Shown here one piece after another: positions 1 to 16,748 of a DNA stretch of 64,000 bases. The notes under the pieces were generated by a model that was given only the letters and a program-made list of their open reading frames with translations, ran no database searches and was not told the DNA's origin. Origin of the DNA: Bryobacterales bacterium (GTDB lineage: Bacteria; Acidobacteriota; Terriglobia; Bryobacterales; Bryobacteraceae); assembly GCA_963843095.1 (NCBI GenBank), contig CAWJLI010000065.1, forward strand, positions 1,123-65,122, given 5' to 3'. Positions within the stretch are counted from its first letter, which is position 1, and every line of letters starts with the position of its first letter. The position numbers were made by a program, and so were the translations under genes.

Positions 1-200
1 CGGTACGGGACCAGTCGGCACTCTATGGGTTGTTGCTCAGGTTGTCCGACATGGGGATTCAACTAATTTCCTTGACTTCAACCGTTGTATGTCAGGGCAA
101 AAACAATGACACACAATAAGGATTAATTAAGAAGACATTGATCCCGATTTCTAAAAAGTTTTCTAGTTTATAAATGCTGTATTTTTAGGGGGTTTAAGAA

Positions 201-473
201 ATGGATCCCTTTGAATTAGAAAAAATTAGTGACCTTTTTGCCGACACAGCTGAACATGTTCGTGATTGTGAAGACCTCGTAAATACAGAACCCAAATGTA
301 CTACTTGCGGTTCAACCAATCTGATTAAGATCTCGGATTATAGTAAGGCTATGTTATTTTTGAGAAACAATGGAGATACTTTGGAACCAAATAAAATAGA
401 TTCCCATGTTTCTGGCAAAAGGAATAAATTTACGACATTGTGGTGGTGTTTAAACTGTAAGCGATTGTGTTGA
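201..473 (+). CDS. small zinc-ribbon protein (CxxC...CxxC), paralog of 11253..11513
   Basis: 90-aa ORF with a purine-rich RBS upstream. Contains KCTTCGSTNLIKISD...WWCLNCKRLC. Nt 306-334 are identical to the inverted copy at 11404-11432. Confidence 0.6.
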   Translation: MDPFELEKISDLFADTAEHVRDCEDLVNTEPKCTTCGSTNLIKISDYSKAMLFLRNNGDTLEPNKIDSHVSGKRNKFTTLWWCLNCKRLC

Positions 474-593
474 TGCGATCTTTATATTATCACCTGAAAA
501 TAAAGCAAAGAGTAGTATTCAACACAGCTGAGCTAAATATGATACCCGTATCAGGGAGATAATAATTATTCAAAAATAAATGAGGCATTTAAG

Positions 594-1856
594 ATGGCCC
601 AATTGGACAAACCTTTGGCAATAAATCAGAAAATGGGGAATCACATGAAAAAAATACGTATAGTTGTTTTTTGTTGCATCCTGGTCGTTGTATTTGCAGT
701 CGGAATGGGGACAGGCATATTTGTACAAAGGCAGTATTTAACTGTTTCCAAAGCCAGTGTTTCGGAATTCCAACTGGTAGAAAAGGCGTGGAATATCGTC
801 AGTAAGAATTATGTGGATCAAACGGCAACCAAGCCACAAACATTGGCTTATGCAACTATTGACGGTATGGTTAATTCTCTCGGTGATACTGGCAACAGCG
901 TTTTTCTTACTCCTGAGGAAGTAAAGCAACAGAACGAAACACAACTACAAGGCATCGGGTTGTATGTATCTGAGACAAACGGTGTTGTGTTTATTGTGGC
1001 TCCAGTGGATGGGTCTCCTGCACAGAAAGCCGGACTGCAGCCTGGAGATATCATTCTCGATGTTAATGGGCAGCCGGTTACTAGTATGGAAGAAGCAGCC
1101 AGCAACATCATGGGTCCAGCCGGAACATCCGTCACCCTCACTATTCAAAGCCCCGCCGGAACAACGAGTGACATTACGATCGTCAGAGCCACTATAGAGA
1201 TAAATAGTGTTACTTGGGAGATGTTGCCTGGTACTTCAATCGCGGATTTGCGACTGGATAATTTTTATCAGGGTACTTCGACCGAATTAGATACGGCATT
1301 ATCGGCAATAAAAACCCAGGGGGCTACAGCCATCATTCTTGATCTTCGAAATAATCCGGGAGGACTTGTGAATGAGGCGATCGGTGTAGCAAGCCGTTTT
1401 CTTAATAGCGGTTATGTTGTCGAGGAAAAAGACGCCAGTGGGAAAATTACAAAAAACGCCGTATTAACAAATGTAACGAAAACGGATCTACCCCTTGTTG
1501 TATTGGTCAACCAAAGAACAATTTCCGCAGCTGAAATCGTAGCGGGAGCACTTCAGTCCCAAGGAAGAGCTAAACTCATTGGCAATACCACATTTGGATC
1601 AGGGACTATCGTTAATTATTTTTCCCTCTCCGATGGTTCAGAAATCCAACTTAGCGTAATGGAATGGCTGACTCCTTCCGGTAAAGGTATTTGGCACGTT
1701 GGTTTAACCCCCGATGTTACCGTGTCTCTTGCTTCTGGAGTTGATCCACTTACCCCCGACACCGAAAAAAACTTGACGATGGAGCAAATAGAAGCTTCTG
1801 GAGACCAGCAGCTTTTAACAGCACTCATTTTGACAGCACACAATTTGTTGCAATAA
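594..1856 (+). CDS. C-terminal processing peptidase, family S41, with PDZ domain
   Basis: PDZ segment GIGLYVSETNGVVFIVAPVDGSPAQKAGLQPGDIILDVNGQPV. S41 motifs LDLRNNPGG and VLVNQRTISAAEIVAGALQ. N-terminal TM helix. The true start may be the internal ATG at 645 (MKKIRIVVF). Confidence 0.9.
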   Translation: MAQLDKPLAINQKMGNHMKKIRIVVFCCILVVVFAVGMGTGIFVQRQYLTVSKASVSEFQLVEKAWNIVSKNYVDQTATKPQTLAYATIDGMVNSLGDTGNSVFLTPEEVKQQNETQLQGIGLYVSETNGVVFIVAPVDGSPAQKAGLQPGDIILDVNGQPVTSMEEAASNIMGPAGTSVTLTIQSPAGTTSDITIVRATIEINSVTWEMLPGTSIADLRLDNFYQGTSTELDTALSAIKTQGATAIILDLRNNPGGLVNEAIGVASRFLNSGYVVEEKDASGKITKNAVLTNVTKTDLPLVVLVNQRTISAAEIVAGALQSQGRAKLIGNTTFGSGTIVNYFSLSDGSEIQLSVMEWLTPSGKGIWHVGLTPDVTVSLASGVDPLTPDTEKNLTMEQIEASGDQQLLTALILTAHNLLQ

Positions 1857-1883
1857 TCAGAGGAGGCAGCACCATTATGTAAC

Positions 1884-1970
1884 TATTATAACTTGGTGAC
1901 AATGCTCCAGCGAGTCGGGATAATGCCAGGTCAGCGCGAAGTAATCGGTAGGCCTACATTTGCAAAATAA
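1884..1970 (+). pseudogene. C-terminal remnant of a SnoaL/ester-cyclase-like gene
   Basis: Translates to YYNLVTMLQRVGIMPGQRE. This matches the conserved C-termini of the full-length copies (YYNIATMLQQLGLMPVQPK, YYNLVTILQQLGLMPWQPK). No N-terminal part is present. Confidence 0.5.
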
Positions 1971-2024
1971 TAACTGTTATAAAAATTAAAGGAGGCATTA
2001 ATATGGCAATAAACGTAAAAAAAT

Positions 2025-2432
2025 ATGAACGATTGTATGGCAGCATGGGATTCACATGACGCAAACAAAATTCTTTCCTTCTATACAGACGATTGTATGT
2101 TCGAAGATGCAGCCATTGGACTTGTAAATCATGGCAAAAAGGAATTTACTGACTTTCTCAACACCAGTTTTACTAACAATCCCGACATCAAGTGGGAGTT
2201 AAAAACTGTTTTTGGAACTGATGATTGGATAGGTGTTGAGTATGTCATGTCAGGTACTCATACTCATACTACTCGCAGCATGCCTGGAGTGCCAGCTACC
2301 GGAAAGACCTTTTCTGTACGTGGGGCTTTAATCCTTCAGTTACGCAAAGGCAAAGTTAGCCGAGAATCAGCCTATTATAATATCGCGACAATGCTGCAGC
2401 AACTTGGGTTAATGCCAGTGCAGCCGAAATAG
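2025..2432 (+). CDS. SnoaL-like / ester cyclase family protein (NTF2-like fold)
   Basis: About 60 percent identical by eye to 9198..9629. An ATG at 2003 with a perfect AAAGGAGG RBS gives MAINVKK in another frame. Removing one A from the A7 run at 2016-2022 restores MAINVKNMNDCMAAW, which aligns with MAIDAIKMANDCSKAW, so this is an indel or a shortened start. Confidence 0.8.
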   Translation: MNDCMAAWDSHDANKILSFYTDDCMFEDAAIGLVNHGKKEFTDFLNTSFTNNPDIKWELKTVFGTDDWIGVEYVMSGTHTHTTRSMPGVPATGKTFSVRGALILQLRKGKVSRESAYYNIATMLQQLGLMPVQPK

Positions 2433-2521
2433 ACGGCAAATACGCTTTTTACGAGTGAAATCAAGATATTGAAACAAATGATTTTAAGCCTTGATTATCG
2501 AACATTTTAAGGGGGTAAAGA

Positions 2522-2911
2522 ATGATACGAGCGCTAAAGGTAGCATTGATTGTCTTCGGTGTGGTAGGAATTTTATTCGGTTTGCTGCTTATTTTTTCTC
2601 CCGGCACATTAGCGAGCAAGAGTGGTGTTAGTGAGGTGGCCGGTTATCTAAAATATACTATGGCAACGTTAGGTTACTGCCTTATCGCCCCCAGTGTCTT
2701 TCTCATCATTGCTGCGCGGGACCCACTGCGGCACATTAACTGGGTGAGGTTCGCTATAGTTTGGTGTATTCTTGGCGTAGCAGTCGAGTTGTATTCAGTC
2801 GGCAGGAGTGACATTACATTCGGGCATGCGGCAGCGCTAATTATCATGCATGCCTTCTTCGCTGTTGTTTTTCTTGCTCTTTATCCTTGGCGCCATAAAA
2901 TTTCCAATTAA
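2522..2911 (+). CDS. hypothetical membrane protein (about 4 TM helices)
   Basis: 129-aa ORF with a GGGGG RBS and four hydrophobic stretches. No family recognised. Confidence 0.6.
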   Translation: MIRALKVALIVFGVVGILFGLLLIFSPGTLASKSGVSEVAGYLKYTMATLGYCLIAPSVFLIIAARDPLRHINWVRFAIVWCILGVAVELYSVGRSDITFGHAAALIIMHAFFAVVFLALYPWRHKISN

Positions 2912-2931
2912 AAATATTAGGAGGAAAAATA

Positions 2932-3132
2932 ATGTCCACAAAAGAAAACAAACAACAAAGTTCACGGATTTCTAAAAGTTACGTTGAACGAAAACTGAAC
3001 CTGAGTGGATCTTCATTGGCGCAGATGATAACTGCTCGAGCTTACGTCTCTTCTTCCGGCCGTAGTATTGCACCTTATGTTTTATATGCTTCTCAAGTAG
3101 AAAGTCGCGAGTTTTCAATTTACAAAAGATAA
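2932..3132 (+). pseudogene. 5' stub of a SnoaL-like gene (MSTKENK type) fused to unrelated sequence
   Basis: The RBS plus first codons (AGGAGGAAAAATAATGTCCAC, then AAAGAAAACAAA) match the start of 8696..9139. Similarity stops after about 8 codons. Confidence 0.35.
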
Positions 3133-3504
3133 AATGATATTTGCATTTGCGTCGGTATTGTTATACATTCCCAATCTGTCCTTCAAATGCCGATTGTTGG
3201 ACTACCCTATTTTTTGCCGTTTCTAATAGCGGCTAATGAGACCCCGATAGGTGGACGGATATGTTCCAGAATTATGAAATTGTCATTGTTGTCCAATCAA
3301 AAGGCCATGGCAGCAGCAAAAGCCACCACGGCAGCAAACAAACCATCGGCCAAAATGACTATCCCACCGCCAACGATTCCAGAATCAAGCTGGGGTTTGC
3401 CAATGTTGGCAAACCGGTTAACCAAGAAGAAGCGAAAGTCGCGCCCTTGCGCCGAGTCCAATATTCAATGATCAGATGACACTGGTTCTTTTGACAAGCT
3501 ACGG

Positions 3505-4140
3505 GATTCATTCTCTCCGTGGAGCGATGGAAGAGCGAAATGTATCCGGCCATCCGCACTGAGGCTGCCGCCGTGGGGCGACCATCTACTTCGGTGATGA
3601 GGCGGGGGTGCGCACTGACTTCCATGCCGGCACCACCTGGGCACCAGTCGGGCAGACTCCGGTCGTACGCACCACCGGTACCCGCGATTCGATCAACCTT
3701 ATCTCTGCACTGAGCGCGCAGGGAGCTTTGCGTTTCTCCACCTACGCAGGTAAGTTCGAATCCGCCACTTTCATCAACTTCTGCAAGCGACTGATGCACG
3801 ACACCAGTGGCTCGGTATTTCTCATTGTCGACGGCCATCCTGTCCACCGGTCCAAAGCAGTCAAAGACTTCGTGGCTTCGACCCATGGACAACTGTGCCT
3901 GTTCCAGTTCCCGGCTTATTCGCCTGAACTCAACCCCGACGAGTGGGTATGGAAGAACGTCAAAGCCGACCGCATCGGTCGCGCCGGTATCGACCAGGCC
4001 AAAGGAAACCTCAGAAGTAAAGCCGTTGCTGCCATGCGTCGACTGCAGAAACTCCCCTGTCTGATTCGTGGCTTCTTCGCCGATCCAAATCTGCGTTACA
4101 TCGTAGCCTGACGTGTCCATTTACTTACGCACCCTTTAGT
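3505..4140 (+). mobile_element. IS630-family transposase, 3' portion (5'-truncated, one frameshift) plus putative right end
   Basis: VERWKSEMYPAIRTEAAAVG switches frame near 3570-3580 into ATIYFGDEAGVRTDFHAGTTWAPVGQTPVV...VDGHPVHRS...YSPELNPDEWVWKNVK (DDE motif). This GC-rich segment sits inside AT-rich DNA and ends CCCTTTAG-TA near 4137. Confidence 0.8.
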
Positions 4141-4269
4141 ATATGAAAAACAATGGGGATTTTGCCTCCATCCATAGTTGGTGTTAGAATTTGCGTAATT
4201 AAAAACTCATTTCCAGACACTGATGACTCTTTCGATGGTATAAATCGATGAACGTGGCGAGGAGGTCAC

Positions 4270-6957
4270 ATGGATATCATAGATCTTTTTTTCAACCCTA
4301 AAAGCATAGTCTTGTTTGGCGCGAGTGAGAGACTAGGTTCAGTCGGTCAATCTACTCTGGCGAATTTGCTGACATCGAAAGATAAGCGGAAGATACTGCA
4401 TAGTCCACCCCAAGCATGAACAATTAATGGATACCAAATGCTATCCAGTACTTTCTGCCTTGCCGGAGGTGCCGGAACTTGCTATTATTGCGACCCCGGC
4501 AGAAACTGTTCCTAATATTGTGGAAGAATGCGGCAGGTCAGGCATTAAGGCCGTTATCGTTATTTCCTCCGGATTCAAAGAAACCGGGGAAAAAGGAAAA
4601 GAACGGGAAACGCAGAATAAAAGAACTTGCTCAGAAGTACGGCATGCGGATTATGGGGCCGAATTGTCTTGGTACTATACGTCCCAGTTCCGGGTTAAAT
4701 GCGTCTTTTGCCCGCAAAGGGACAAAACCGGGTAAAATTGCCTTCCTTTCCCAGAGCGGCGCGCTCGGTACTTCTGTCCTTGATTGGGCCGCTGAGTAGA
4801 GATATTGGTTTTAGCGCCTTTGCCTCATTGGGCTCGATGCTAGATATTGACTTCGGCGATTTAATCGATTATTTCGGAGCAGACTCCCAGACAAGAAGCA
4901 TCATTATTTATCTTGAGTCATTGGGTAATACCCTGCAGGATACCAGGAAATTTATGAGTGCGGTGAGAGGTTTTGCTCGCAATAAGCCGATTATCGTGAT
5001 TAAAGCAGGAAAATTCCAGGAGAGCCGTCAGGCAGCTAAATCTCATACAGGTGCAATGGTCGGGGAAGATTCCTATTATGATGCCGTTTTTGATAGGGCC
5101 GGAGTAGTCAGGGTTGATGAAATTGAGGATTTATTTGGTTGTGCCTCTATCCTCGACACTGCCATCTTACCCAAAGGAGAGAACCTGGCGATTATCACTA
5201 ATGCCGGAGGTTTGGCAGTACTTGCCACCGATGCCCTCATCGGCAGAGGCGGTAGACTAGCTTCGCTCAGTGATACTGCCATGAAAAGCCTGAACCAGAT
5301 ATTGCCCCCCTACTGGAGCAAATCCAATCCGATCGATATTCTGGGAGATGCCGGTGTCGAACTCTACACTGGCGCTATTGATATTGTGCTTAAGGACCCG
5401 GCAGTACATGGCATTGTCGTTATCTATACGCCTCAGGGAGTCGCAACTGCAGTCGATCTGGCCCAAGCCATTTCAAAAATTGCCAATAAGAGTACTAAGC
5501 CCATATTGACCGTACTAATGGGAGGAACAGAAGTAGAAAAGGCACGGCAGTTATTCTACGAAAACAAAGTACCGACTTATGAGTTCCCGGAAGAAGCTGT
5601 TAAAACTTACATGTATTCGTATCGGTACGCAATGAATTTGAAAAATCTTTATGAAACACCGGAGGATATGCCGCTTGATGTGGGCACACCGAAGAACCAC
5701 CTCAAACTACTGGTTGGCAAAGCTGCTCGTTCAGGCAGGTTTGTATTAAGTGAAGATGATTCAAAGAAATTTCTCAATACCTATCGGATCAATGTCACCC
5801 TACCGTATTTTGCCAGCGATGTTAATGCGGCGGCAAGCATCGCATCAGGTGTCGGATACCCGGTAGTCATGAAAATACAATCTTCTGATATTTCCCATAA
5901 ATCTGATGTCGGCGGCGTGCAATTATACCTTAAATCGGCTGATGAGGTGCGAAAAGCCTACAAGGAAATGCTGGAAAACGTTAACAAACATGTACCTGAC
6001 GCACATCTTGATGGTGTGACAATACAGAAAATGATTACTGACTATGATTATGAATTAATAATCGGCAGTAAAAAAGATCCAACACTTGGACCCGTAATCA
6101 TATTTGGACAGGGTGGAACAGAAACAGAGTTCTATAAAGATGTGGCCATCGGGTTACCCCCTTTGAATAGGAGATTGGCACGCATGCTTATTGAACGTAC
6201 CAATGTTTGCGAAATGCTCTCGAAAGGGTTCGGCAAGAGGCCGGCGGCAAATCTCAAGTTGCTTGATGAAACCCTCATTAGACTTTCTAACATGATTATT
6301 GATTTCCCAGAAATAAAGGAGTTGGATGTTAATCCGCTGGTGGTGGCTGGTGAAAAGGTAATTGCGCTGGATGCTCGTATTATCCTCGATGAAGAAGTCG
6401 TAAAGAATCAGCCGAGTGAATTTTCTCACCTGATTATTTCGCCTTATCCCACCAGATACATACAACCCTGGTTATGCCGTGACGGGCGGTCCGTTTTACT
6501 AAGACCAATCAGACCGGAGGACGAGCCGCTGGAACATGAACTGCTGGCAGGATTGTCTCCTGAGTCGTCCCGGTTTCGTTTCTTCTACATAATTAAAGAT
6601 ATCTCTCACGAAATGCTCAGCCGCTTTTGCAATATTGACTACGGCCGTGAAATTGCTATTGTGGCCGAATATAATTCAAGTGGGAAAAGAAGGAATGTTG
6701 GCGTAGGAAGGTTAATTATTGAACCGGGTACCGACACCGGAGAATTTGCGACTCTCGTCGCTGATGATTTTCAGCGGGTTAGTTTAGGGCATAAACTCAC
6801 CGATATGCTCATCGGTATAGCCCAGGAGAAGGGTCTTAAAAGCATGTACGGTGTTATTCTCAGGGATAACGTGAAGATGATTGGCCTGGCCCGAAACCTC
6901 GGGTTTACCATTGAATCACTGGACGTCGATGAATGTAAAGCCGTAATCGATTTATAA
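4270..6957 (+). pseudogene. Pat-like protein acetyltransferase (ADP-forming acyl-CoA synthetase domains + C-terminal GNAT), three frameshifts in the first 530 nt
   Basis: CoA-binding motifs SIVLFGASERLGSVG, GPNCLGTIRP, SQSGALGTSVLDWAAE. ATP-grasp segment VVMKIQSSDISHKSDVGGV. GNAT tail LRPIRPEDEP...VGVGRLI. Frame changes near 4393-4399, near 4607-4610 (extra A), and at 4797 (extra T creating TAG). Confidence 0.85.
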
Positions 6958-7057
6958 TTGGTGGATTTAATCTCTAAATTTGCCACGTAGATTAAAAATC
7001 AACATAAGAGTTTCATCGTTACTAATAAGTTCATAAGTAACTAGACTTTTCTTCCAT

Positions 7058-7146
7058 TTTGTGGTAGTATATTGGGTATGCGAGACAACGACGGGCGGAA
7101 GCTGGACCACAAGACACTCGAGCAGGTTCGAATACGGGTCGTTTTT
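7058..7146 (+). mobile_element. IS630-family element, left end plus first ~22 codons only
   Basis: ATG at 7078 gives MRDNDGRKLDHKTLEQVRIRVV, the typical N-terminus of this IS630 subgroup as I recall it. A short GC-rich patch. The sequence before the ATG (TATTGGGTATGCGAG) loosely mirrors the right end near 4120-4137. Confidence 0.55.
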
Positions 7147-7434
7147 GATTGAGAGCCTGATACTGTTATAGACGGGTATTATTTCGAATACAAATGCCTC
7201 ATATCTCGATTTGTGAAGATCCTGATGCAATGCTCCAATGATCGATTCCTCATTGGCTTCAATTACCTGCTTGAGTTTGACTAGTTGTTTGATTCTGAAA
7301 TCAATATTTTTTGTCTTTCCGGTCTCAAAATACTTTTTATGTTCGTCCAAAATTTTCAATGTTTCTTTATCACTTATCTGTGAATTCCCTGGTACATTAA
7401 GGTCGTTAGACATCTTATATGTGTTTGTTGCCAT
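7147..7434 (-). pseudogene. aldehyde dehydrogenase (class-3-like), N-terminal ~98 codons only
   Basis: FRIKQLVKLKQVIEANEESIIGALHQDLHKSRYEAFVFEIIPVYNSIRLSIKN resembles the ALDH N-terminus. The reading frame then runs into the IS630 5' fragment, so the rest of the 155-aa ORF is read-through. Confidence 0.6.
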
Positions 7435-7487
7435 GTTAATGCCTCCCTATTCTTTTATTTCTTAACAATTTTATTTCGCTGTCGTGA

Positions 7488-7912
7488 TTATTTCGGCTGC
7501 CATGGCATTAACCCGAGTTGTTGAAGTATTGTCACCAAGTTATAATAGTCTGTTTCTCGACTTATCTTGCCATCTTGTAAGTGATAGATCGTAGCACCGC
7601 GTACAGAAAACGTCTTGCCGGTAGCTGGCATTCCAGATATTGGGCTGTGAGCATTAGTACCGGACATGACCCACTCTTGGCCTGCCCAGCCACCAGCCAC
7701 GAAAAAACTCTTTTCCTCAAACTTTACGTCGGGAACATCAACGAGGGTAGATTTGATGACGTTATCCAATTCCTTTTTGCCATTACTGACTTTCCCGAGT
7801 GCCAAATCATCTATAACACCGTCGTCCGTAAAAAAGGAAAGCATCTTATTTGCGTCATGTGAATTCCAGCTGCTATATAATCATCTATTATCTTTTTAGT
7901 ATTCCTTGCCAT
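7488..7912 (-). pseudogene. SnoaL-like / ester cyclase, one frameshift near 7868
   Basis: ATG at 7912 with an AAAGGAGG RBS gives MARNTKKIIDDYIAA. One missing nucleotide (GCAGC-TGGAAT) then separates it from NSHDANKMLSFFTDD..., which continues in the 118-aa ORF. Confidence 0.75.
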
Positions 7913-8090
7913 CTGGATGCCTCCTTTATTTTTCTAACCATTTTTATTATTTCGCAGATGTAGTCGTACTACGTTAATAGCAGTGTTTCATAACATAACT
8001 CCCGATAAGCGGTCTCTTTGTTAAATCGGGCATCATCAATGCAGTACATCTGCTTAAACAGGTCATATTCAGGCAACGAACGCGCCTACA

Positions 8091-8560
8091 CTAATACAAT
8101 CTCTTCTTTGCAAAAATCATTGGGTAAGGAACGGACCTCACCACCCGAGCGCTGAGTTTGGGGTTGAGTTGCTTCACTATGGGCTACAGATTAATCCCTT
8201 CAACCCGGCAAAACATCTCAATGGTCTTGTCGTCCATACCAAGTTCATGACCTGCTGCATAATAAGTGCATTCAGTGCACTGGGTTAAGACCCTCTTAGG
8301 GCTGTTTTCCACCACTTTAATAGAGAGACAAATTGCTCCATGCCGCGGTGGACAAGTGCTCCCGCCTATTTGGGGATCAACTTTTTATCACCGACTTGTT
8401 TTTTAATCACCTTACCTTGCATTGTGCCCATTTTCTCCATCACTTTGGACTGCAAGGCAACTGCCCGTTCCATTCCCAACTGTTCGGCTACACCGAGAAG
8501 CAACGCATCGTACATCATGAGGCCAGCTTTTACACCATCGAAAGTATCCTTATTCGCCAT
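8091..8560 (-). pseudogene. Cys-rich small protein, degraded paralog of 10664..11134
   Basis: The N-terminus MANKDTFDGVKAGL... matches MANKDTFNNAKTLF.... The continuation SIKVVENSPKRVLTQCTECTYYAAGHELGMDDKTIEMFCRVEGINL*PIVKQLNPKL lies in another frame and contains an internal stop. Confidence 0.65.
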
Positions 8561-8695
8561 TTTAATTACTCCTATTAAAAAATATATTGTTTATTATCTT
8601 ATTCTAAAAAAATGAAACCAATAATGTTACCCGTGTTATTTCAGTCAAGCATCCCATCAAATCGAATTTGAGAGATACCTTGCCTCTGTGGCATC

Positions 8696-9139
8696 CTATT
8701 TTCTTGGTGGCGGGCTAATAACTGCTCCAATCTGGGTCATCAAACTCAACATATCATTAAACTCCCACCATTCCAGGATTTTATTCCCCTCGATTTTGTA
8801 AATATCACTCCCTTTTATTGAAACATGCTTTCCGGTGGCAGGGATTCCTGCAATGGTTGCCTTATGAGTGGCTTGAATGGTATGTCTGGTAACCACTTTG
8901 TCGCCTTCAGCTACCATATCATCAATGGATTTATTAAAATCTGGAATTGCAGACAAGACTGTAGCCAAATATTGCATATTTTGTTCCCAGTCTAAATCTT
9001 TTGGAGGGAGAAGATGGTGGACTAAACCCGGTGCACAATACTTCTCACACCAAGAACGTAGTTTGGCGGTATCTTCAACAATCTCATTCCTTTCCTTAAT
9101 AACCTGACGGATCAACTCTTTGTTTTCTTTGGTGGACAT
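8696..9139 (-). CDS. SnoaL-like / ester cyclase family protein (MSTKENK subtype)
   Basis: 147-aa ORF with an AGGAGG RBS. The GIPATGKHVSIKGSDIYKIEGNKI core is shared with the other copies (PATGKTFS.RG). Confidence 0.75.
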   Translation of the reverse strand: MSTKENKELIRQVIKERNEIVEDTAKLRSWCEKYCAPGLVHHLLPPKDLDWEQNMQYLATVLSAIPDFNKSIDDMVAEGDKVVTRHTIQATHKATIAGIPATGKHVSIKGSDIYKIEGNKILEWWEFNDMLSLMTQIGAVISPPPRK

Positions 9140-9197
9140 TATTTTTCCTCCTTTATTTTTTCTAACAATCCTTATTTTGTGGATAAAGGTGAAATAC

Positions 9198-9629
9198 TTA
9201 TTTCGGCTGCCCTGGCATTAATCCGACTTGCTGAAGGAATGTAGCCATGTTGTAATACACTGATTCTCGGCTATACTTGCCATTACGCAACTGATAGATT
9301 CCAGCAACGCGTATTGAAAATGTTTTGCCGGTAGCTGGTATAGCATTTTTGGTCATTGTACTATGCGCATGGGTGCCCGACATGATCCATTCATTGCCCT
9401 GCCAATCATTGGTCCCGAAAGCCGACTTTACTTCCCATTTAATGTCGGGGAAATCAGCAAACATTGTATTTATGTAATCGGTGAATTCTTTTTTACCATG
9501 TTTGACAACACCGAGACCCAAATCTTCGTAAACACAATCTTCCGTATAAAATTCAAAGATCTTATTTACATCGTGGGAATTCCATGCTTTACTACAGTCG
9601 TTCGCCATCTTTATTGCATCGATTGCCAT
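9198..9629 (-). CDS. SnoaL-like / ester cyclase family protein
   Basis: Start chosen at ATG 9629 (MAIDAIKMANDC), which follows AAAGGAGA. Conserved core WNSHDVNKIFEFYTEDC...IPATGKTFSIR...YYNMATFLQQVGLMPGQPK. Confidence 0.8.
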   Translation of the reverse strand: MAIDAIKMANDCSKAWNSHDVNKIFEFYTEDCVYEDLGLGVVKHGKKEFTDYINTMFADFPDIKWEVKSAFGTNDWQGNEWIMSGTHAHSTMTKNAIPATGKTFSIRVAGIYQLRNGKYSRESVYYNMATFLQQVGLMPGQPK

Positions 9630-9898
9630 GTTAAAATCTCCTTTATTTTTTTCTAACAATTATTATTTTGCATATGTAGACTTTGGTGTCCGATTATATA
9701 GCTTAATTTAGCTGACCGGAGCGGAGTTTGGAGCTCCGCCCCGGCATATGATCACCTATCAAATTCGCTTTCTATCACGATTCTTGCAATATCACAGCCA
9801 TGTGCTTCTTATCGGTCTTAGCAGTCGTAAATTTACACGGCATGAGCGATGCGTTATTCATTAGTGAATTTAGTCTACGCTTACCGAATTTGATACGT

Positions 9899-10195
9899 CT
9901 ACTTCATCATGGATTTCCCAACGCTGTCGTATTCGTTTATCGATAATGCCTGGTGAGTTTTGAATTGAATATCTGGGTAGTCCGAGAGCGTCATCTTGGC
10001 AACATCGGTCCAACTTTTTTCACTTATCATGTAACCCCTGGATTCGCCCAGAAAAATTCCCCAATCGCTTATCAGACCTTCCTTCTGAAGTTGCTTTACC
10101 ATCTCAATATGCTTCGTCTGATACGCCATCCTCTCCTTGGGGTCGGTAGGATACTTGCTCAGTTCTGCTTCCCACGTCATGAAATATTTTGGCAT
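9899..10195 (-). CDS. hypothetical small protein, possibly DUF3303-like
   Basis: 98-aa ORF with a good RBS. The pattern KYFMTWEAE...GLISDWGIFLGESRGYMISE recalls DUF3303-type small alpha/beta proteins. Family assignment is from memory only. Confidence 0.5.
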   Translation of the reverse strand: MPKYFMTWEAELSKYPTDPKERMAYQTKHIEMVKQLQKEGLISDWGIFLGESRGYMISEKSWTDVAKMTLSDYPDIQFKTHQALSINEYDSVGKSMMK

Positions 10196-10276
10196 CTTAT
10201 TCTCCTTTATAATTTATTTCTTCGATAGGGGAACATAAATAGAAAGTAAAACCGGTATTATCTCATTTACTGTACA

Positions 10277-10459
10277 TCACCTCCTCGAAAAATTAAAACC
10301 GACCATTTTCAGTATGTAGCCACCATTGGGCAACAACTGCTCGTTCTTTATCTGCATCAAACTGGGCCAAATCTGCAGCAAGTTACTCAGCTTTATCACA
10401 AAATCGTAGATTTTTTCTACAGGCGCGTTAATAAAAATCTCTTTATCAACTCTTGTCAT
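10277..10459 (-). pseudogene. SRPBCC (START/polyketide-cyclase-like) N-terminal stub
   Basis: MTRVDKEIFINAPVEKIYDFVIKLSNLLQIWPS is a typical SRPBCC N-terminus. The ORF stops after 60 aa, against about 140 expected. Confidence 0.5.
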
Positions 10460-10663
10460 TGTATGCCCCTTTTCCCCTTTGTCGGGGGATAAATTATGCT
10501 GAAGTTATGCGAAAGAATTGATCAGGTAGCCTAGATCACGAGTGGTCTAACCTGAACATAAATTTGGAACATAACCAATCTTCTTTTTGGCATTGTCTCT
10601 TTTACTCTAAATTGTTGTTTAGATTTACTGAAACAAAGGCACTTAAACCTAAATCAATCATCG

Positions 10664-11134
10664 CTACAATCTCCTCTTCGCAGAAATCTTCCGGTGTGGA
10701 CGGAAATTCACCAGCCGAAAGCTGAGTTCAGGATTGAGTTGTTTAACCATTGTATCTATGAAATTGATTCTGCCCGCTCTGCACCACCTCTCAATGACCG
10801 GGTGGTCTATCCCCAATTCGCGAGCCGCTTCGTAATTATGGCATCTGGAACACTGCACCAAAACGCAGTGGGGACTTTCTTCTACTATTTTTATGCTTGA
10901 GCCGAGACTATTATATACAGCTCTGACCAGTGGCTCTGCGGCCCGGGCGTTATATTTTTTAGTAGTTTTCCGCTTTATAATCAGTGGGTCCGGCATCGCT
11001 CCCATTTTCTCCATTGCTTTAGCAGATAAATCGATGGCTCGATCCATTCCAATCTCTTCAGCTACAGTTTGAGCAAAAACATGATGCATTTTGAACAGTG
11101 TTTTAGCGTTATTAAAAGTATCCTTATTTGCCAT
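10664..11134 (-). CDS. Cys-rich small protein, family uncertain (ATC-hydrolase-like?)
   Basis: 156-aa intact ORF with VQCSRCHNYEAARELGIDHPVIERWCRAG. Intact counterpart of the pseudogene at 8091..8560. Confidence 0.6.
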   Translation of the reverse strand: MANKDTFNNAKTLFKMHHVFAQTVAEEIGMDRAIDLSAKAMEKMGAMPDPLIIKRKTTKKYNARAAEPLVRAVYNSLGSSIKIVEESPHCVLVQCSRCHNYEAARELGIDHPVIERWCRAGRINFIDTMVKQLNPELSFRLVNFRPHRKISAKRRL

Positions 11135-11252
11135 ATAATCACCCCTATTTTGTAAATATTCGGGAATGATAAATTATTATCATTCACTTTTTCATAACAC
11201 AACCCCCAATAATCCAGGCCCGTTGCTGGTCTATTTGATTAAAAACTTCGTT

Positions 11253-11513
11253 CTAACACAATCGTTTGCAATCTAAACACCACCACATTGTCATTAATTT
11301 ATTACTTCTATTTTTGCCACGTCGCGAGCGTACTTTTACCGGTTCGAGATTTTCTTCCATACTCCCCAAAAATAACATCGCTTTACTTTGATCGGAGATC
11401 TTAATCAGATTGGTTGAACCGCAGGCAGCGCATTTGATTTCTTGATGCACATGATTTTCGCAATCATTGGGGTTACCGTCGAAAACCGCGTTCTTTGACC
11501 CATCACTAACCAC
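11253..11513 (-). CDS. small zinc-ribbon protein, inverted paralog of 201..473; N-terminus overprinted by IS-end repeats
   Basis: DCENHVHQEIKCAACGSTNLIKISDQSKAMLFL...WWCLDCKRLC aligns with the left copy from DCE onward. The first ~17 codons are encoded by the TGGGTCAAAGAA repeats, so the 5' end is probably not native. Confidence 0.55.
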   Translation of the reverse strand: MVSDGSKNAVFDGNPNDCENHVHQEIKCAACGSTNLIKISDQSKAMLFLGSMEENLEPVKVRSRRGKNRSNKLMTMWWCLDCKRLC

Positions 11514-11526
11514 ATTCTTTGACCCA
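11491..11526. repeat. two direct copies of TTCTTTGACCCA (minus-strand TGGGTCAAAGAA), putative IS21-type terminal repeats
   Basis: Copies at 11491-11502 and 11515-11526, just 3' of the istB remnant on the minus strand. A third partial copy, CTTTGACCC, is at 11819-11827. Confidence 0.5.
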
Positions 11527-11554
11527 CCCGGGGATTATTAAAGTTGTACTACTT

Positions 11555-11835
11555 CTACTTTACTGCTGTCAATCCCTCCTTTCGCCGGTGCGGCGATAGT
11601 TTTTCCCTGTAACTCGATCCCTCGATAACAATCTGATAGCTGGCATTTGCCAGCCTGTCCAGAGCGCTGTTACCGAGGATAGGGTCATCAAACAATCCCA
11701 GCCACTCTTCCACCGACCGGTTACTGGTAAAAGCAAAGCTGGACTGCCGGTGCCTGGCGATGATGAGTTCATAAAGGTCAGTTGACTGCTGACCCAAGAC
11801 CTCCGTGAGTACTTCAAACTTTGACCCGCCTCCAA
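11555..11835 (-). mobile_element. IS21-family IstB helper ATPase, C-terminal remnant
   Basis: EVLTEVLGQQSTDLYELIIARHRQSSFAFTSNRSVEEWLGLFDDPILGNSALDRLANASYQIVIEGSSYREKL matches the IstB C-terminus. No Walker A region and no istA upstream. Confidence 0.7.
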
Positions 11836-11849
11836 ATAGACCGGATCGG

Positions 11850-12305
11850 ATGTACAGGCACGACCGGCCTGTTGATCCCGAGTTCTTGCCTTCAGAACTC
11901 CTCTATTACCGGATCGCTGTTACTGGGCCTGTTGGGTCATGCCCCGATGGAGTCGATATTCGGCTTCCGGAGGATTCGGTTAACCGAGGTAAGTATAGCG
12001 AACCGACGGACGTTCTTTTTCCGGACTATTTTCACCTTGGCGTAGCAGAGTTTCCAGTCTCCAAGATTCCCGCTCCTCGCTCCTTCACGGATCAGCAAGG
12101 GAACTCCAGGGGTTACGAACTGAAGGTCGAGCACGACCCGAAGGAGGATAACTATGCCCATTCCGAGTTGCGGGCCTTCCGCGAACGTTCGAGGGTGACT
12201 CATACGGGCAAGATTCCGGTAACCGTGAAAAGCGAGTTCCGTCAGTTGGTTGCTGAAGCAATGGTCATCCGTGTTGCCGTGCCTGCAGGCCACCCCACGC
12301 AGTGA
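11850..12305 (+). CDS. hypothetical protein (orphan)
   Basis: ATG at 11850 (MYRHDRPVDPEFLPSELLYYRI...DNYAHSELRAF...). Intermediate GC. No family recognised. The track ORF starts at an upstream GTG at 11805. Confidence 0.5.
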   Translation: MYRHDRPVDPEFLPSELLYYRIAVTGPVGSCPDGVDIRLPEDSVNRGKYSEPTDVLFPDYFHLGVAEFPVSKIPAPRSFTDQQGNSRGYELKVEHDPKEDNYAHSELRAFRERSRVTHTGKIPVTVKSEFRQLVAEAMVIRVAVPAGHPTQ

Positions 12306-12508
12306 AGCAGTGAAGCGTACATTCAAACGAATTGACGGAATATCCACGGGTGGAATCTGGTGACGCTATGGTGACGAGTTAGAGACCAAACAATCCAAAG
12401 ACTCGCCGAAGCACTGCGAGCGAAAATCGGTCCGATTCGGCTGCACGGTATGGGCTTATGCGATTTGTAGCGAAGCACTGCAAAGTGCGCTAAATGCCTT
12501 CGACCCCT

Positions 12509-12552
12509 CTTTCACGGCGGTAACGGGGGTTCGAATCCCCCTGGGGACGCCA
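12509..12552 (+). pseudogene. 3' fragment of tRNA-Glu(UUC), anticodon loop to CCA; att-like scar
   Basis: CTTTCACGGCGGTAACGGGGGTTCGAATCCCCCTGGGGACGCCA parallels the E. coli tRNA-Glu 3' half (CUUUCACGGCGGUAACAGGGGUUCGAAUCCCCUAGGGGACGCCA). There is no GTCCCC acceptor or D-arm upstream. Confidence 0.7.
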
Positions 12553-12597
12553 ACTATACAGAACATGCGGGCTCCTAATTCAGCGCGTGGTAAGAGC

Positions 12598-12627
12598 AAC
12601 AAGAAATGTCGAGACGAATCTCGACAC
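12598..12627 (-). terminator. putative rho-independent terminator downstream of adk
   Basis: Stem GTCGAGA/TCTCGAC (12608-12614 / 12620-12626), followed on the minus strand by ATTTCTTGTT. Confidence 0.45.
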
Positions 12628-12682
12628 GGCAGGCAGGAATACCCGCGCCACGCCGCCAGACGGAACCGTGAGAAAATGCCGG

Positions 12683-13357
12683 CTAGTAGCGGTCGGCAAC
12701 GGGAATCGTGCCAGTAGCTTCGATCACCGCTTCCTCGATCGAGCGCGCCACGTGCGCAAGCGGTTGGGCGCCATCCACGGTATGGACACGCGCCGGCCCA
12801 TACCAGTCCAGAATCGGACCGGTGAGCTGGCTGTAGGCATATAGACGGTCGCGGATCACCGATTCCAGATCGTCCTCCCGGGTGAGCAGCCCCGAACCAT
12901 CGTCGTCACAATAACCCGCGATGCGCGGCGGTTGCGACTGCAGGTTGTAAATCTTCAAGCACTTGGGGCATTGGCGGCGGGCGGTCAAACGCGCCACCAG
13001 GATGCTGTCCGGCACGTCGAGGTGAATCACTACCGGCTCAGGCAAGTCGCGCTCGGCCAACAGCGTCGCGAAGTTCTGCGCCTGCGGCACCGTGCGCGGG
13101 TATCCATCCAGCAGGAAGCCGTTCTTGCAGTCCGGCCGCGAAGTGCGGCTGGCTACGATGCCGTTGACGATGTCATCGCTCACCAAGCCGCCGGCCTGCA
13201 TGATGACGCTGGCCTGCTTGCCCAATTCCGTTCCCGCTTTGCACTCGGCGCGGAACATTTCGCCAGTGGAGATGGCCGGTATGTGGAATTTTTCAGCAAG
13301 TGAAGTCGCTTGCGTACCTTTGCCACAGCCGGGCGGACCAAAAAGCAGCAAAATCAC
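12683..13357 (-). CDS. adk: adenylate kinase
   Basis: P-loop GPPGCGKGT, LLDGYPRT, and a lid with CPKC...CDDD. GTG start preceded by GGAGG. Confidence 0.95.
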   Translation of the reverse strand: MILLLFGPPGCGKGTQATSLAEKFHIPAISTGEMFRAECKAGTELGKQASVIMQAGGLVSDDIVNGIVASRTSRPDCKNGFLLDGYPRTVPQAQNFATLLAERDLPEPVVIHLDVPDSILVARLTARRQCPKCLKIYNLQSQPPRIAGYCDDDGSGLLTREDDLESVIRDRLYAYSQLTGPILDWYGPARVHTVDGAQPLAHVARSIEEAVIEATGTIPVADRY

Positions 13358-13403
13358 GACAGCCTCCAGAACCTAAGTTTAACATAATCAGGTCTGAAGC
13401 TGC

Positions 13404-14507
13404 CTAATCGGGTTGAATCCTTCCGTCGCGGCGGAGGCGGAGATTGAGGCCGCGCCATTCCACCGTCATGCCGAACAGGCCGGCGACCCAGATTGCGCTT
13501 CCGAGCAGATCGCGAATCGGGATGAGCGCCAAGCGGCGGCCAGTGGCGGCATCTTCCAGGACTTCCGCGGCGATCCAGGCGCCGGCGGCGATGCGCAGCG
13601 CGAGAGCCGGAATGGCGGCCCACCATGCTCCGGCCAACAGCGCCACCAGGCTCCACAACGTGGCGTGGGTGACAATCGAGCCGCAGTAGCCGGAAAACCG
13701 CGAGACGCGGATGGTGCGCGCCCAGCGCAACTGGTGCCGCCAGACCTGGCCCCACGAGCCGGCGCCCAGGTTGGTTTCCACCACCACGTCCGCGAACTCG
13801 ATGTGCAGCCCGAGTTGATGGATGTGGCGGCCCAGTTGGTAATCGTCGGCCAGGTAATCGAAGATGGTTTCGAAGCCGCCGATGGCGCGCAACGTTTCGG
13901 CGCGGAAGGCCATCGTCGACCCAAGAGCGAATTCGGCCACGCCCAGCAGGCGCGCCACCATCACGCTGGGCGCGAAATCGGTAGCGATGCCGAGGGCCTC
14001 CATGCGGGTTGCCGGAGAGCCGCCGTGCGCGCGATAGAGGCACGTCACCAGCCCGGTTCCGGCTCCGGCGAGCGGCGCCACCACGGCGTCCAGATATCCG
14101 GGCGGAACGAAAATGTCGCCGTCGTTCACCAGCAGAACCTCGTGTCGGGCGTGGCGCGCCAGTTCGGCCAGCACGCCGGCTTTGGCATTGGGCGCGGTGG
14201 TGGATACGACGTGGAGGGAAATCGCCAGGTTGGGAAACTCGCTCTGCAAGCTCGCGATGTCCGCTATCGCCGGATCGCTGGGATCGCTGACGCCGAACAG
14301 GATTTCGAACTCCGGATAGTTCTGCGCGGCGTGAGAGCGGACGCAGGCGTAAAAGCTGGGGTCGCGGCCCTGAACGGGCTTGAGGACAGAGATGGGGGGC
14401 GCATACGGCGGCCACTGCGCCGCCAGCCTGCCCCACCGTGTAGCGGCGATGAGCGCCAGCAGATAGTACGCAGCCGCCGCCAGCGCCGGAAGTGCCAGCA
14501 GGATCAC
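13404..14507 (-). CDS. hpnI: hopanoid-associated family-2 glycosyltransferase HpnI-like
   Basis: ISVLKPVQGRDP...YPEFEILFGVSDPSDPAIADI...VLLVNDGDIFVPPGYLDAVVAPLA...GLVTCLYRA fits the HpnI/ceramide-glucosyltransferase-like pattern. Sits next to hpnJ. The GTG start overlaps the upstream stop (GTGA). Confidence 0.75.
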   Translation of the reverse strand: MILLALPALAAAAYYLLALIAATRWGRLAAQWPPYAPPISVLKPVQGRDPSFYACVRSHAAQNYPEFEILFGVSDPSDPAIADIASLQSEFPNLAISLHVVSTTAPNAKAGVLAELARHARHEVLLVNDGDIFVPPGYLDAVVAPLAGAGTGLVTCLYRAHGGSPATRMEALGIATDFAPSVMVARLLGVAEFALGSTMAFRAETLRAIGGFETIFDYLADDYQLGRHIHQLGLHIEFADVVVETNLGAGSWGQVWRHQLRWARTIRVSRFSGYCGSIVTHATLWSLVALLAGAWWAAIPALALRIAAGAWIAAEVLEDAATGRRLALIPIRDLLGSAIWVAGLFGMTVEWRGLNLRLRRDGRIQPD

Positions 14508-14866
14508 AGCGACACCAGCGCCACGCCGCAGAGGACGACCGCCGCGCCAGCCCAGCGCAGCCAGTTGACGCGCTCCTTCAGAACGTACTTGGCCAAAATC
14601 GTTTCGATGACGTAGGTGACCGCGGTGACCGGAACGGCGAAGCTGAGGTCGGTGAACGACAGCAGTCCGAGGTAGGCGAAGAACGAAACCGCCATCGCCA
14701 CCACCGACAAGATGACGACGCCGTTGCGCGCCAGCGTGCCCGCCGCGCGGCCAAGCGCGCCGGGGCGGAAGTCGCGGATCTCGCCATGGCGGCGCATGCC
14801 GATCGCTTGCAGCACTTCACCCACGCTGGTGGCAGCCACGATGATGGCAATCAGCAGCCACTTCAT
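14504..14866 (-). CDS. half-size DMT/EamA-like membrane protein (4 TM)
   Basis: 120 aa. LSFTDLSFAVPVTAVTYVIETILAKYVLKERVNWLRWAGAAVVLCGVALV is an EamA half-repeat. ATGA overlap with the upstream gene. Confidence 0.7.
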   Translation of the reverse strand: MKWLLIAIIVAATSVGEVLQAIGMRRHGEIRDFRPGALGRAAGTLARNGVVILSVVAMAVSFFAYLGLLSFTDLSFAVPVTAVTYVIETILAKYVLKERVNWLRWAGAAVVLCGVALVSL

Positions 14867-15276
14867 GATGCCCCCTCCGGTTTCCCGCGAAAGGTCTGCG
14901 GCGCGCTGCCGCTGCCCACCAGCGCCACTCCGGCCATGATCAGCAGAATGCCGGCCCAGCGCTGGCGAGTGATCCGTTCATCGAGCAGCCAGCGGCCGAG
15001 GAACGCCACCAGCACGTAGCCAATCGACGTCACCGGCAGCACGTAGCTCAAATCCGCCCAGCTCAGCAGCGTCATCCGCGAAAGCAGCCACACAATCAGC
15101 AACGACACGCCCAGCGCCACCCACGGCCGGAACAGCACGGTGATGTAGGAGAGCGGCGAGGGAAGCTCATCCGGCATGCCGCGTTTGAGAAAGAAATTGC
15201 CGAAGACCTGGGCCAGCACCACGATAGCGGCGCAGGCCCAGGTCTTGCTGCGCAACCGCGCGGTTTCCGGCGTCAT
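14863..15276 (-). CDS. half-size DMT/EamA-like membrane protein (4 TM)
   Basis: Start set at ATG 15276 (MTPETARL), 8 nt after the hpnJ stop. LSWADLSYVLPVTSIGYVLVAFLGRWLLDERITRQRWAGILLIMAGVALV. The longer track ORF would overlap hpnJ. Confidence 0.65.
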   Translation of the reverse strand: MTPETARLRSKTWACAAIVVLAQVFGNFFLKRGMPDELPSPLSYITVLFRPWVALGVSLLIVWLLSRMTLLSWADLSYVLPVTSIGYVLVAFLGRWLLDERITRQRWAGILLIMAGVALVGSGSAPQTFRGKPEGAS

Positions 15277-15284
15277 CAGAGGGG

Positions 15285-16748
15285 TTAATCGCCGGAAGAA
15301 ACCGGCGCCGGGGTCGCGGCGGCCTTGTGGCCCGCCACAAATTTCTTGCGCTTGGAACGAAGCGCCATGTATTCGCGTGCTTCCTTGGTCAGGCGCCGCC
15401 GCTCGCTCGAATTGAAGATGGCTTTCCGGACGATGCGCCAGATCACGCGCGGGCGGAAGAAGTACTCGCCATAGAAGCGCTCTACCCAATCCACCAGCTC
15501 GCCGCGGTCCAGCCCCGGGTAGATCACGACCGGCAATTGGTGGCCGGTTTCATCGGTCAGCGCATCGATGGTGAGCAGATCGTTCTTCTTGGCGTAATTG
15601 TAGAACTCGGTGCCTGGATAGGGATGGGCGATCGAGACCTGGATGGTTTCCGTATCCATCCGCTTGGCGAAATCGATGGTCTTGCGGATCGTGTCCCGCG
15701 TTTCGCCGGGCAGGCCGATGATGTAATCGCCATGCACCGTGAGGTCCAGTTTCTTGCAGTTGGCCGTAAAGCGCTCGGCCATCTCGACGGTGGCGCCCTT
15801 CTTGATGTTCTTCAGGATCTGCTGGTCGCCCGATTCGTAGCCCACGATCAGCAGCCGGCAGCCGGCTTCCTTCATCGCCTTCAGCGTCTCGTAATCGGTG
15901 GTGACACGCGATGTGCAGGACCAGGTGAACTTCAGCGGCTTGAGCTTCTTGCACAGCTCGATGGTGCGGTCCTTGCGGTAGTTGAAGGTGTCGTCGTCGA
16001 AAAAGATTTCCTTGATATTGGGGAACTGCTCGATCGCGTAGCGGGCTTCCGCGGCTACATCGTCGGCCGAGCGCAGGCGCCAGCGGTGGCCGGAATGTGT
16101 CTGCGGCCACAGGCAGAAGGTACACAGCGCCGGGCAGCCGCGGCTGGTATAGAACGCGATATAAGGGTTGAGCAGAAACGGGACGTTGTAACGCGTGACA
16201 TCGAGATCGCGCTTGTAGGTCTTGGTCACCCAGGGCAGCGCGTCCAGATCCTCGATGGCGGGGCCTTCGGGGTTGTGGATCACGTCGCCGTTGCGGCGGA
16301 AACTCACTCCCGGCAATTCGGCGAGCGGTTTACCCTTGGCGTAATCGGCGATCTGGTAATCGAACTCGCGGCGCACCACGAAATCGATCGCGGTCGTCGA
16401 GCGCAGGGTTTTTTCCGGCTCGATGGTGACCGGCGGCCCCACGAACGCCACCCGCAGCTTCGAATTCGCGTCCTTCATCATCTCCGCCATCTTGACGTCC
16501 ACCTGGAAGCCCGGCGAGGAAGTGTAGAGCACCAGCAGCTCGAAATCCTTCGCCATCTCGACGGTTTGCGGGATGGAGATCTTGTGCGGCGGCGCATCCA
16601 CCACCTTGCTGTCGGCCAGCATGCCGGCCGGATAGCAGAGCCACACGGGATACCAGTAGGATTCGATTTCGCGCGAGGCCGGCCAGCGCGAGCCGGCGCC
16701 TCCATCGAATCCTTCAAAGGACGGCGGATTCAGAAATAGTGTTCGCAT
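15285..16748 (-). CDS. hpnJ: hopanoid biosynthesis-associated B12-binding radical SAM protein HpnJ
   Basis: MRTLFLNPPSFEGFDGGAGSRWPASREIESYWYPVWL... and the radical SAM site YTSRGCPALCTFCLWPQT match the HpnJ family pattern as I recall it. Confidence 0.85.
   Translation of the reverse strand: MRTLFLNPPSFEGFDGGAGSRWPASREIESYWYPVWLCYPAGMLADSKVVDAPPHKISIPQTVEMAKDFELLVLYTSSPGFQVDVKMAEMMKDANSKLRVAFVGPPVTIEPEKTLRSTTAIDFVVRREFDYQIADYAKGKPLAELPGVSFRRNGDVIHNPEGPAIEDLDALPWVTKTYKRDLDVTRYNVPFLLNPYIAFYTSRGCPALCTFCLWPQTHSGHRWRLRSADDVAAEARYAIEQFPNIKEIFFDDDTFNYRKDRTIELCKKLKPLKFTWSCTSRVTTDYETLKAMKEAGCRLLIVGYESGDQQILKNIKKGATVEMAERFTANCKKLDLTVHGDYIIGLPGETRDTIRKTIDFAKRMDTETIQVSIAHPYPGTEFYNYAKKNDLLTIDALTDETGHQLPVVIYPGLDRGELVDWVERFYGEYFFRPRVIWRIVRKAIFNSSERRRLTKEAREYMALRSKRKKFVAGHKAAATPAPVSSGD

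Follow-up and report, generated by a model that had tools for sequence, protein, structure and literature searches.

One of the questions raised by a 64,000-nucleotide stretch of DNA assigned to a Bryobacterales bacterium (NCBI GenBank assembly GCA_963843095.1, contig CAWJLI010000065.1, positions 1,123 to 65,122 of the forward strand; the whole stretch is called the window here) relates to how an AT-rich block of about 11.5 kb came to lie next to a GC-rich chromosome, with the remains of an IS21-family insertion sequence (IS) and a fragment of a tRNA-Glu(UUC) gene between them. Is the AT-rich DNA the cargo of an island that integrated into the tRNA gene, as was proposed when the sequence was first read (the original prediction), or is the contig a chimera, which the same reading named as the competing explanation? 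The best reading is that two separate things stand side by side, a real island scar and a probable misjoin. The tRNA fragment at 12509-12552 is, on comparison with other contigs, a genuine scar of the right-hand attachment site (attR) type, left by a tRNA-targeting integrative element. The contig itself is quite probably chimeric, the AT-rich block having been joined to a Bryobacteraceae contig by an assembly error.

Composition of the window

The change in composition across the window is abrupt, as the original prediction had it. In 1-kb windows the GC content is 0.38-0.46 across 1-11 kb, except for a value of 0.52 at 3-4 kb, and it is 0.57-0.67 from 12 kb to the end of the window. By segment, GC is 0.430 at 1-11477, 0.498 at 11478-11792, 0.542 at 11793-12508 and 0.631 at 12553-64000. 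The true compositional and phylogenetic break falls at 11792/11793; the switch is real, but it is not located at the tRNA fragment. Two checks that had been proposed for the two sides give the same picture. The tetranucleotide profile of the AT-rich block correlates with non-overlapping parts of matching AT-rich contigs at r=0.86-0.90 and with the GC-rich part of the window at -0.2, while in independent assemblies the two sides match different phyla, each at 98% identity or more. No similarity between 1-12552 and 12553-64000, such as a shared IS or a repeat, was found by blastn or tblastx. The features around the break are the following, in which contigs used for comparison carry L numbers.

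1-11477: AT-rich Dehalococcoidia-type chromosomal segment, GC 0.43, matched by collinear contigs
11478-11792, minus strand: right end of an IS21-family element, made up of the terminal non-coding region and the last 79 codons of istB (11555-11792)
11792-11793: blunt junction between the interior of the IS21 element and the interior of an island gene, with zero microhomology
11793-11824, plus strand: tail of a 167-amino-acid (aa) island gene, its last ~10 codons and stop; the gene is intact on other contigs
11850-12305, plus strand: conserved 151-aa island open reading frame (ORF) of no family, with the same protein on L009 and L010
12358-12508, plus strand: conserved island arm (P-arm-like) beside the attachment (att) core, recognised by contig comparison
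12509-12552, plus strand: 3' 44 nt of tRNA-Glu(UUC), from the first anticodon-loop base to CCA, the att core on the attR side

The junction at 11792/11793

The join is neither at an IS terminus nor at an att site, and the inside of istB meets the inside of an island gene. The megablast match on the IS21 side ends at 11792 and that on the island side at 11793, with no overlap. For instance, with the break marked by a slash, the IS21 copies read ...GACTGCTGA/GCCGTC... (ending CTGCTGA/GCCGTC), the island copies on L009, L010 and L177 read ...CCGGACAG/CCCAAGACC... (GGACAG/CCCAAG), and the window reads ...GACTGCTGA/CCCAAGACC... (CTGCTGA/CCCAAG). The IS21 element has its terminus towards the AT-rich DNA and its broken interior towards the island, an arrangement that cannot result from just one IS21 transposition into the island. 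The left side is matched by L094-L096, L184, L178, L179, L185 and L091-L093, and the right side by L009, L010, L177 and L001-L008. None of the compared contigs crosses the junction, which is present on the window's own contig alone, absence from the databases being weak evidence. On that contig, of 70,981 bp, the S41 peptidase of the AT-rich block and the GC-side genes occur together.

The IS21 remnant

Elements of the IS21 family carry istA and istB and multiple terminal repeats, and they can bring about replicon fusion via tandem IS21 copies. The remnant is like them in its istB C-terminus (positions 171-233 of the 238 in PF01695), in the two 19-nt direct repeats of its terminus (11484-11502 and 11508-11526, repeat family D16) and in the recurrence of the same outer end at three other sites. 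It is unlike them in that 315 bp is all that is left, cut in the interior at 11792, with no istA on this contig and no second end, and in that the broken end faces Bryobacteraceae DNA. An istB C-terminal remnant had been recognised in the first reading and is indeed present, but it had been extended to 11835; IS21 homology covers 11478-11792, and 11793-11824 is the tail of the island gene.

The three other sites are on the JGI contigs L094 and L095 (99.7% identity) and L096 (95.9%), which match exactly 11478-11792. They have the outer end at 11478 in common, lie in three different AT-rich flanks and carry an istB that continues past 11792. The closest homolog of the IstB remnant is likewise a longer IstB, 99% identical and not truncated, and the 90%-identity IstB cluster includes 'ATP-binding protein, partial [Dehalococcoidales bacterium]'. 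Because the flanks of L094-L096 are AT-rich and the cluster has this Dehalococcoidales member, the IS21 copy is evidently one that belongs to the AT-rich organism, where it is multi-copy.

The AT-rich block

The provenance of the AT-rich block can be read from contigs that match it with little change over most of its length:

1-1912: L091-L093, 99.6% identity (7 substitutions, 0 indels)
608-7021: L178 and L179, 98.2-98.6% identity
608-9683: L184, 97.7% identity
7141-9926: L185, 98.1% identity
acs region: L097-L099, 94-96% identity

The matching contigs are AT-rich throughout, they come from at least eight other assemblies, and none of them touches Bryobacteraceae DNA. The protein of the acetyl-CoA synthetase/GNAT gene (acs) finds its best genome matches in metagenome-assembled genomes (MAGs) of Dehalococcoidia/Chloroflexota, at up to 83% aa identity; in a comparison of synteny with the GTDB Dehalococcoidia MAG representatives the acs gene was all that was held in common. 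In native AT-rich DNA a 75-aa gene lies just ahead of the point where the window starts; the window's own contig carries this gene too, which indicates that the AT-rich DNA continues leftward in native synteny.

It had been suggested that GC-rich IS630 fragments embedded in the block reflect residence in a GC-rich host. This is refuted by the remnant at 3505-4140, which is native, being found at the same position in the wholly AT-rich contigs L178, L179 and L184, while the stretch at 7058-7146, with a GC of 0.51, is only mildly enriched. No host-type mobile element that inserted after arrival was found in the AT-rich block, and there is no sequence common to 1-12552 and 12553-64000. Nor does the block contain transfer or mobility genes; it consists of housekeeping-type genes and IS debris that are also in the native genome. 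The DNA to the left of 11793 is thus, by all its matches, native and unaltered Dehalococcoidia-type chromosome. The genes of the block are as follows:

201-473, plus strand: Zn-ribbon ORF
594-1856, plus strand: S41 peptidase
2025-2432 (plus), 7488-7844 (minus), 8696-9139 (minus) and 9198-9659 (minus): SnoaL-like genes
2522-2911, plus strand: membrane protein
about 3359-4140: IS630/DDE_3 remnant, with the DDE_3 match at 3608-4111 (Pfam)
about 4270-6957, plus strand: ADP-forming acetyl-CoA synthetase/GNAT (acs) pseudogene, with +1 insertions at 4395, 4616 and 4794
6967-7434, minus strand: N-terminal fragment of an aldehyde dehydrogenase
9899-10195, minus strand: YciI-like gene
10664-11134, minus strand: 156-aa ORF
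11253-11466, minus strand: Zn-ribbon paralog

L178, L179 and L184 have an undamaged acs gene (894 aa), in comparison with which the three +1 insertions, single bases that divide the gene into three frames, are specific to the window; acs is also disrupted in related native strains, being truncated in L097 and fused to an upstream reading frame in L098. By eye only, the frame that is fused to acs in L098 resembles the N-terminus of an IS110-type transposase. Window-specific indels number about 7 per 47 substitutions on the AT side and 2 per 52 on the GC side, a difference that is suggestive, not significant, and on which no reliance is placed.

Some further observations concern repeats within the block. 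The two Zn-ribbon paralogs, 201-473 (plus) and 11253-11466 (minus), are inverted with respect to each other, share ~75% nucleotide identity and lie near both ends of the block, and the IS21 insertion at 11478 seems to have removed the 5' end of the right-hand copy. The upstream regions of the four SnoaL-like paralogs are repeated as well (1913-2092 and 7488-9659). Around 1913-1935 the identity to L091-L093 falls from 99.6% to ~80%, which resembles a tract of gene conversion or recombination among the paralogs.

The tRNA-Glu fragment and the integration scar

The stretch at 12509-12552 had been described as the part of a tRNA-Glu(UUC) from the anticodon loop to CCA, and such it proves to be. 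ARAGORN makes no tRNA call there, its only calls in the window being a tRNA-Ser and a tRNA-Arg elsewhere. With the Rfam tRNA model, whose threshold is 29 bits, 12494-12542 scores 16.3 bits, the match consisting of the anticodon and T arms alone (model positions 7-64), with the D-arm region collapsed and the acceptor stem absent; together the two programs exclude a full tRNA. The 44-mer has a single copy in the window, and no match by chance is expected.

What the fragment represents becomes clear from the same site on other contigs. On L007 the site is empty: this contig has 100% identity with the window over 12509-13536 and departs from it exactly at 12509, where it carries an intact tRNA-Glu(ttc) and then a tRNA-Ala(cgc). 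The 3' 44 nt of the intact gene are identical to 12509-12552, and homology with the window stops at the anticodon loop. A further contig, L001, terminates exactly at 12509. Occupied sites are found on L002, L003, L005 and L006, all with the same 44-nt fragment and a conserved arm of ~150 nt, in chromosomal flanks that are 95.7% (L005) or 98.0-98.5% (L002, L003 and L006) identical to that of the window.

The arm bears direct repeats, GGTGACG twice (12359 and 12370) and GAAGCACTGC twice (12408 and 12472). It is complete in L002, L003 and L006, whose arms have 73-76% identity to that of the window and keep both copies of each repeat, while the L005 contig stops within it (129 of 156 positions present). 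Unrelated cargo begins just inside GGTGACGCTATGGTGACGA in L002, L003 and L006, and four different cargo continuations are seen at the inner edge of the arm. This edge, following GGTGACGCTATGGTGACGA, may be a recombination or insertion hot spot, as the comparison suggests. L002 and L006 have one arm variant, yet unlike cargo (compared around window 12358-12376).

It is the combination of core, repeat-bearing arm, variable cargo and empty/occupied polymorphism that identifies the fragment as an attR-type scar, and the tRNA-Glu site is evidently polymorphic, either empty or occupied, in the Bryobacteraceae population. The proposal of such a scar is therefore borne out, by the empty site of L007 and the occupied sites of the other four contigs, and so is the placing of the element to the left of the fragment, by the divergence of L007 at 12509. 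By analogy with known elements, the crossover would take place in the anticodon loop and an integrase would act at the tRNA-Glu site. Sublocation classes of tRNA-gene integration, including tyrosine-integrase elements with an anticodon-loop crossover, were reportedly set out by Williams in Nucleic Acids Res in 2002. The present case is like other tRNA-targeting islands in having a direct tRNA 3' fragment at the distal end, an empty-site allele, a repeat-bearing arm by the core, variable cargo and a GC below that of the host (0.54-0.57 in the island against 0.63 in the backbone). It is unlike them in that this contig, on which about 720 bp of island precede the join, shows no integrase, left-hand attachment site (attL) or intact tRNA. 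A scan of ORFs in 1-12552 and of the island DNA on L009 and L177 found no integrase domain, but this covers just the distal 0.7-2 kb of the island, whose unseen end could hold one; ARAGORN finds no tRNA-Glu gene (attL) in the window.

An identical 44-mer is present in three IMG/VR viral contigs. In L183 (7543-9277) the fragment lies 12 nt past a large serine recombinase gene (Resolvase and Recombinase domains) that is preceded by a DUF2924 gene, in L182 (439-482) it lies in an AT-rich stretch (GC 0.34) of 1,053 nt within a viral contig of 33.7 kb, and in L181 (8110-8185) it belongs to a full tRNA-Glu. On L005 (about 1873-1890) the spacer between the tRNA 3' end and the adenylate kinase gene (adk) has a 13-nt insertion (TGGCGGCCTCTCT, in adk orientation).

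The island variant right of the join

L009, L010 and L177 match the window solely from 11793 rightward, with 100%, 100% and 99% identity over the island part. To the left of 11793 all three carry the 167-aa gene, at a GC of about 0.56. In L009 this gene occupies 1017-1520, L009 position 1489 corresponds to window 11793, and a 231-aa gene lies ahead of it. The intact 167-aa protein (P0331) is encoded on five contigs, among which the window's own is not included; neither the 231-aa nor the 167-aa gene is on that contig. The 151-aa ORF, described as an orphan in the first reading, does exist but is not confined to this DNA: the exact protein is on L009 (ENA ERZ25039486) and L010 (Logan SRR27973281), a 99%-identical copy is on L177 (ENA ERZ25039535), and cluster variants occur on Logan and ENA contigs. 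Pfam and PADLOC gave no assignment for the 231-, 167- and 151-aa island genes.

Between L009 1489-2536 and window 11793-12840, an interval that runs from the island end through the att core and the spacer into the first ~160 nt of adk, there are zero differences, and beyond 12840 the two differ by about 4% over the next 5 kb. Such an identical island end in diverged backbones suggests a recent spread of the island, with a little of its flank, between strains by recombination. In L177 (2168-3929 of contig_38115) the 231-, 167- and 151-aa genes form a 1.76-kb module with 97.5% identity to L009. It is flanked by PALP-domain genes on one side and a DEAD-box helicase gene on the other, no tRNA is near, and the island or the module therefore occurs in a second context.

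Bryobacteraceae backbone and co-occurrence

The backbone to the right of the scar begins with the following genes:

12683-13357, minus strand: adenylate kinase (adk), the first backbone gene (Pfam)
13404-16748: beside adk, a family-21 glycosyltransferase (367 aa), two EamA-type small transporters and hpnJ, a hopanoid-biosynthesis radical SAM (S-adenosylmethionine) protein gene

The adk protein is found, residue for residue, on eight other metagenome contigs, and proteins encoded on the GC side have cluster mates, at 90% identity or more, that are named Bryobacteraceae bacterium. One assembly, ERZ25039486, holds both the Bryobacteraceae island contig L009 and the AT-organism contig L178, from which it follows that the two organisms co-occur. 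Long-read assembly is indicated by the 'contig_N' names of the sister assemblies and by the many broken genes of L009. The Microflora Danica long-read study applied Flye --meta to Nanopore data (PMC12313526). That the sister assemblies come from that study is a guess from the contig names, and Flye is no more than suspected, from these names and that paper, as the assembler of the window's contig.

The origin of the junction

How, then, might the two halves have come together? The proposed course of events starts from a Bryobacteraceae (Acidobacteriota) population in which integrative elements occupy the 3' end of the tRNA-Glu(UUC) gene. The stretch at 12509-12552 is the duplicated 44-nt att core (attR), 12358-12508 the arm of the element and 11793-12357 the last cargo of one island variant. 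The Bryobacteraceae contig would have ended inside this strain-variable island and a Dehalococcoidia-type fragment, of which ~11.5 kb is seen here, would have stopped 315 bp into a multi-copy IS, after which the ends were falsely linked, for example by a chimeric read or a false link at a contig end. The AT-rich block would in that case be neither island cargo nor part of the Bryobacteraceae genome. A chimera is favoured because the junction is on one contig alone while the island is uninterrupted on L009, L010 and L177, because the intact 167-aa product is encoded on five contigs, because free-living contigs are almost identical to the AT-rich DNA, and because the block lacks mobility functions, a second junction is not seen and the organisms co-occur. 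Inter-genome chimeras in metagenome assemblies and MAGs are a problem addressed by tools such as GUNC (PMC12313526). The window is like such chimeras in that its halves match different phyla in independent assemblies, the join is on one contig, the foreign part is near a contig end, and one side ends in a multi-copy IS and the other in a strain-variable region. It is unlike them in having no repeat common to both genomes at the join, so that this is not a classic repeat-mediated misjoin. The chimeric contig that the original prediction held in reserve is thus the better explanation, but the join, which it placed at IS or repeat sequence, does not run through a repeat common to the two genomes; it is blunt and lies inside an IS21 copy of the AT-rich organism.

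Several points weigh against a false join. The case for it is drawn entirely from assembled contigs. A de Bruijn-graph assembler requires a shared k-mer to misjoin two sequences; there is no shared k-mer at this join, which excludes a simple misjoin of that type and calls for a chimeric long read, for scaffolding or for something of the kind. Blunt joins also arise in vivo, for instance by illegitimate recombination of the non-homologous end joining (NHEJ) type. The three window-specific +1 insertions in acs could be explained by decay in a new host, but the gene is also disrupted in the native L097 and L098. The main rival is that the contig is correct, and that a soil or peat Bryobacteraceae strain very recently took at least 11.5 kb of Dehalococcoidia chromosome into its tRNA-Glu island, either by NHEJ-like end joining or by an IS21 cointegrate, with a later deletion in which the left part of the island was lost together with istA and most of istB. 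A mobile, strain-variable island is a plausible landing pad for foreign DNA, IS21 elements are established as agents of replicon fusion, the acs frameshifts and the truncated IS fit non-functional passenger DNA, and the two organisms have habitats in common. Such an insertion is nevertheless unlikely. It would be an inter-phylum transfer of non-mobile DNA within a span of less than 0.5% divergence. The AT-rich DNA, 99.6% identical to free-living contigs, shows no amelioration; transfer genes are absent from it, and its housekeeping-type genes and IS debris are all present already in the native genome. The orientation of the IS21 element is opposite to that of a simple insertion, so at least two events are needed, and there is zero microhomology and no visible second junction. 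The junction is on the window's own contig only; L010, the closest of the island copies, matches at 100% as far as the join, and the island gene is uninterrupted there as it is in L009 and L177.

Much less probable still is the arrangement first proposed, in which the whole left part, AT-rich block included, is cargo of the tRNA-Glu island, which would then be of exceptionally deviant composition, with the integrase and the intact tRNA-Glu beyond the left edge. The orientation of the 44-nt fragment does place the element leftward, and the contig does run slightly past the window, but no more than 6,981 bp of it (70,981 - 64,000) lie outside. The first gene to the left is the native neighbour of the AT-rich organism, the 231- and 167-aa genes are not on the contig, and the same unsupported junction is needed. 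This proposal has not been borne out: the adjacent island has a GC of ~0.54-0.57, and in the known variant (L009, L010 and L177) other genes lie to the left of 11793. Finally, were the 44-mer a chance or decayed tRNA-like sequence and the GC change an intragenomic variation, the weak Rfam score would be accounted for, but this has a negligible probability given the exact match to the intact tRNA-Glu of L007, the break at the anticodon loop, the lack of any expected chance match and the two sides that match different phyla at 98% identity or more. The empty-site allele of L007 led to the rejection of a chance or decayed 44-mer.

Meaning of the locus

Nothing at this locus is new in kind, the scar being a standard tRNA-gene integration site, and the strongly AT-rich island that the GC-rich genome seemed to contain most probably does not exist. 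Should the join prove an artefact, the public contig and its MAG carry ~12 kb or more of Dehalococcoidia DNA, and the block would be misread as a spectacular horizontal transfer, contaminating Bryobacteraceae gene inventories. If the junction were true, it would show non-mobile DNA that passed from one phylum to another very recently, with the transfer all but still in progress. The biology that remains is a polymorphic integration hot spot of a well-known kind at the tRNA-Glu(UUC) gene of Bryobacteraceae, with a conserved arm of ~150 nt and fast-changing cargo.

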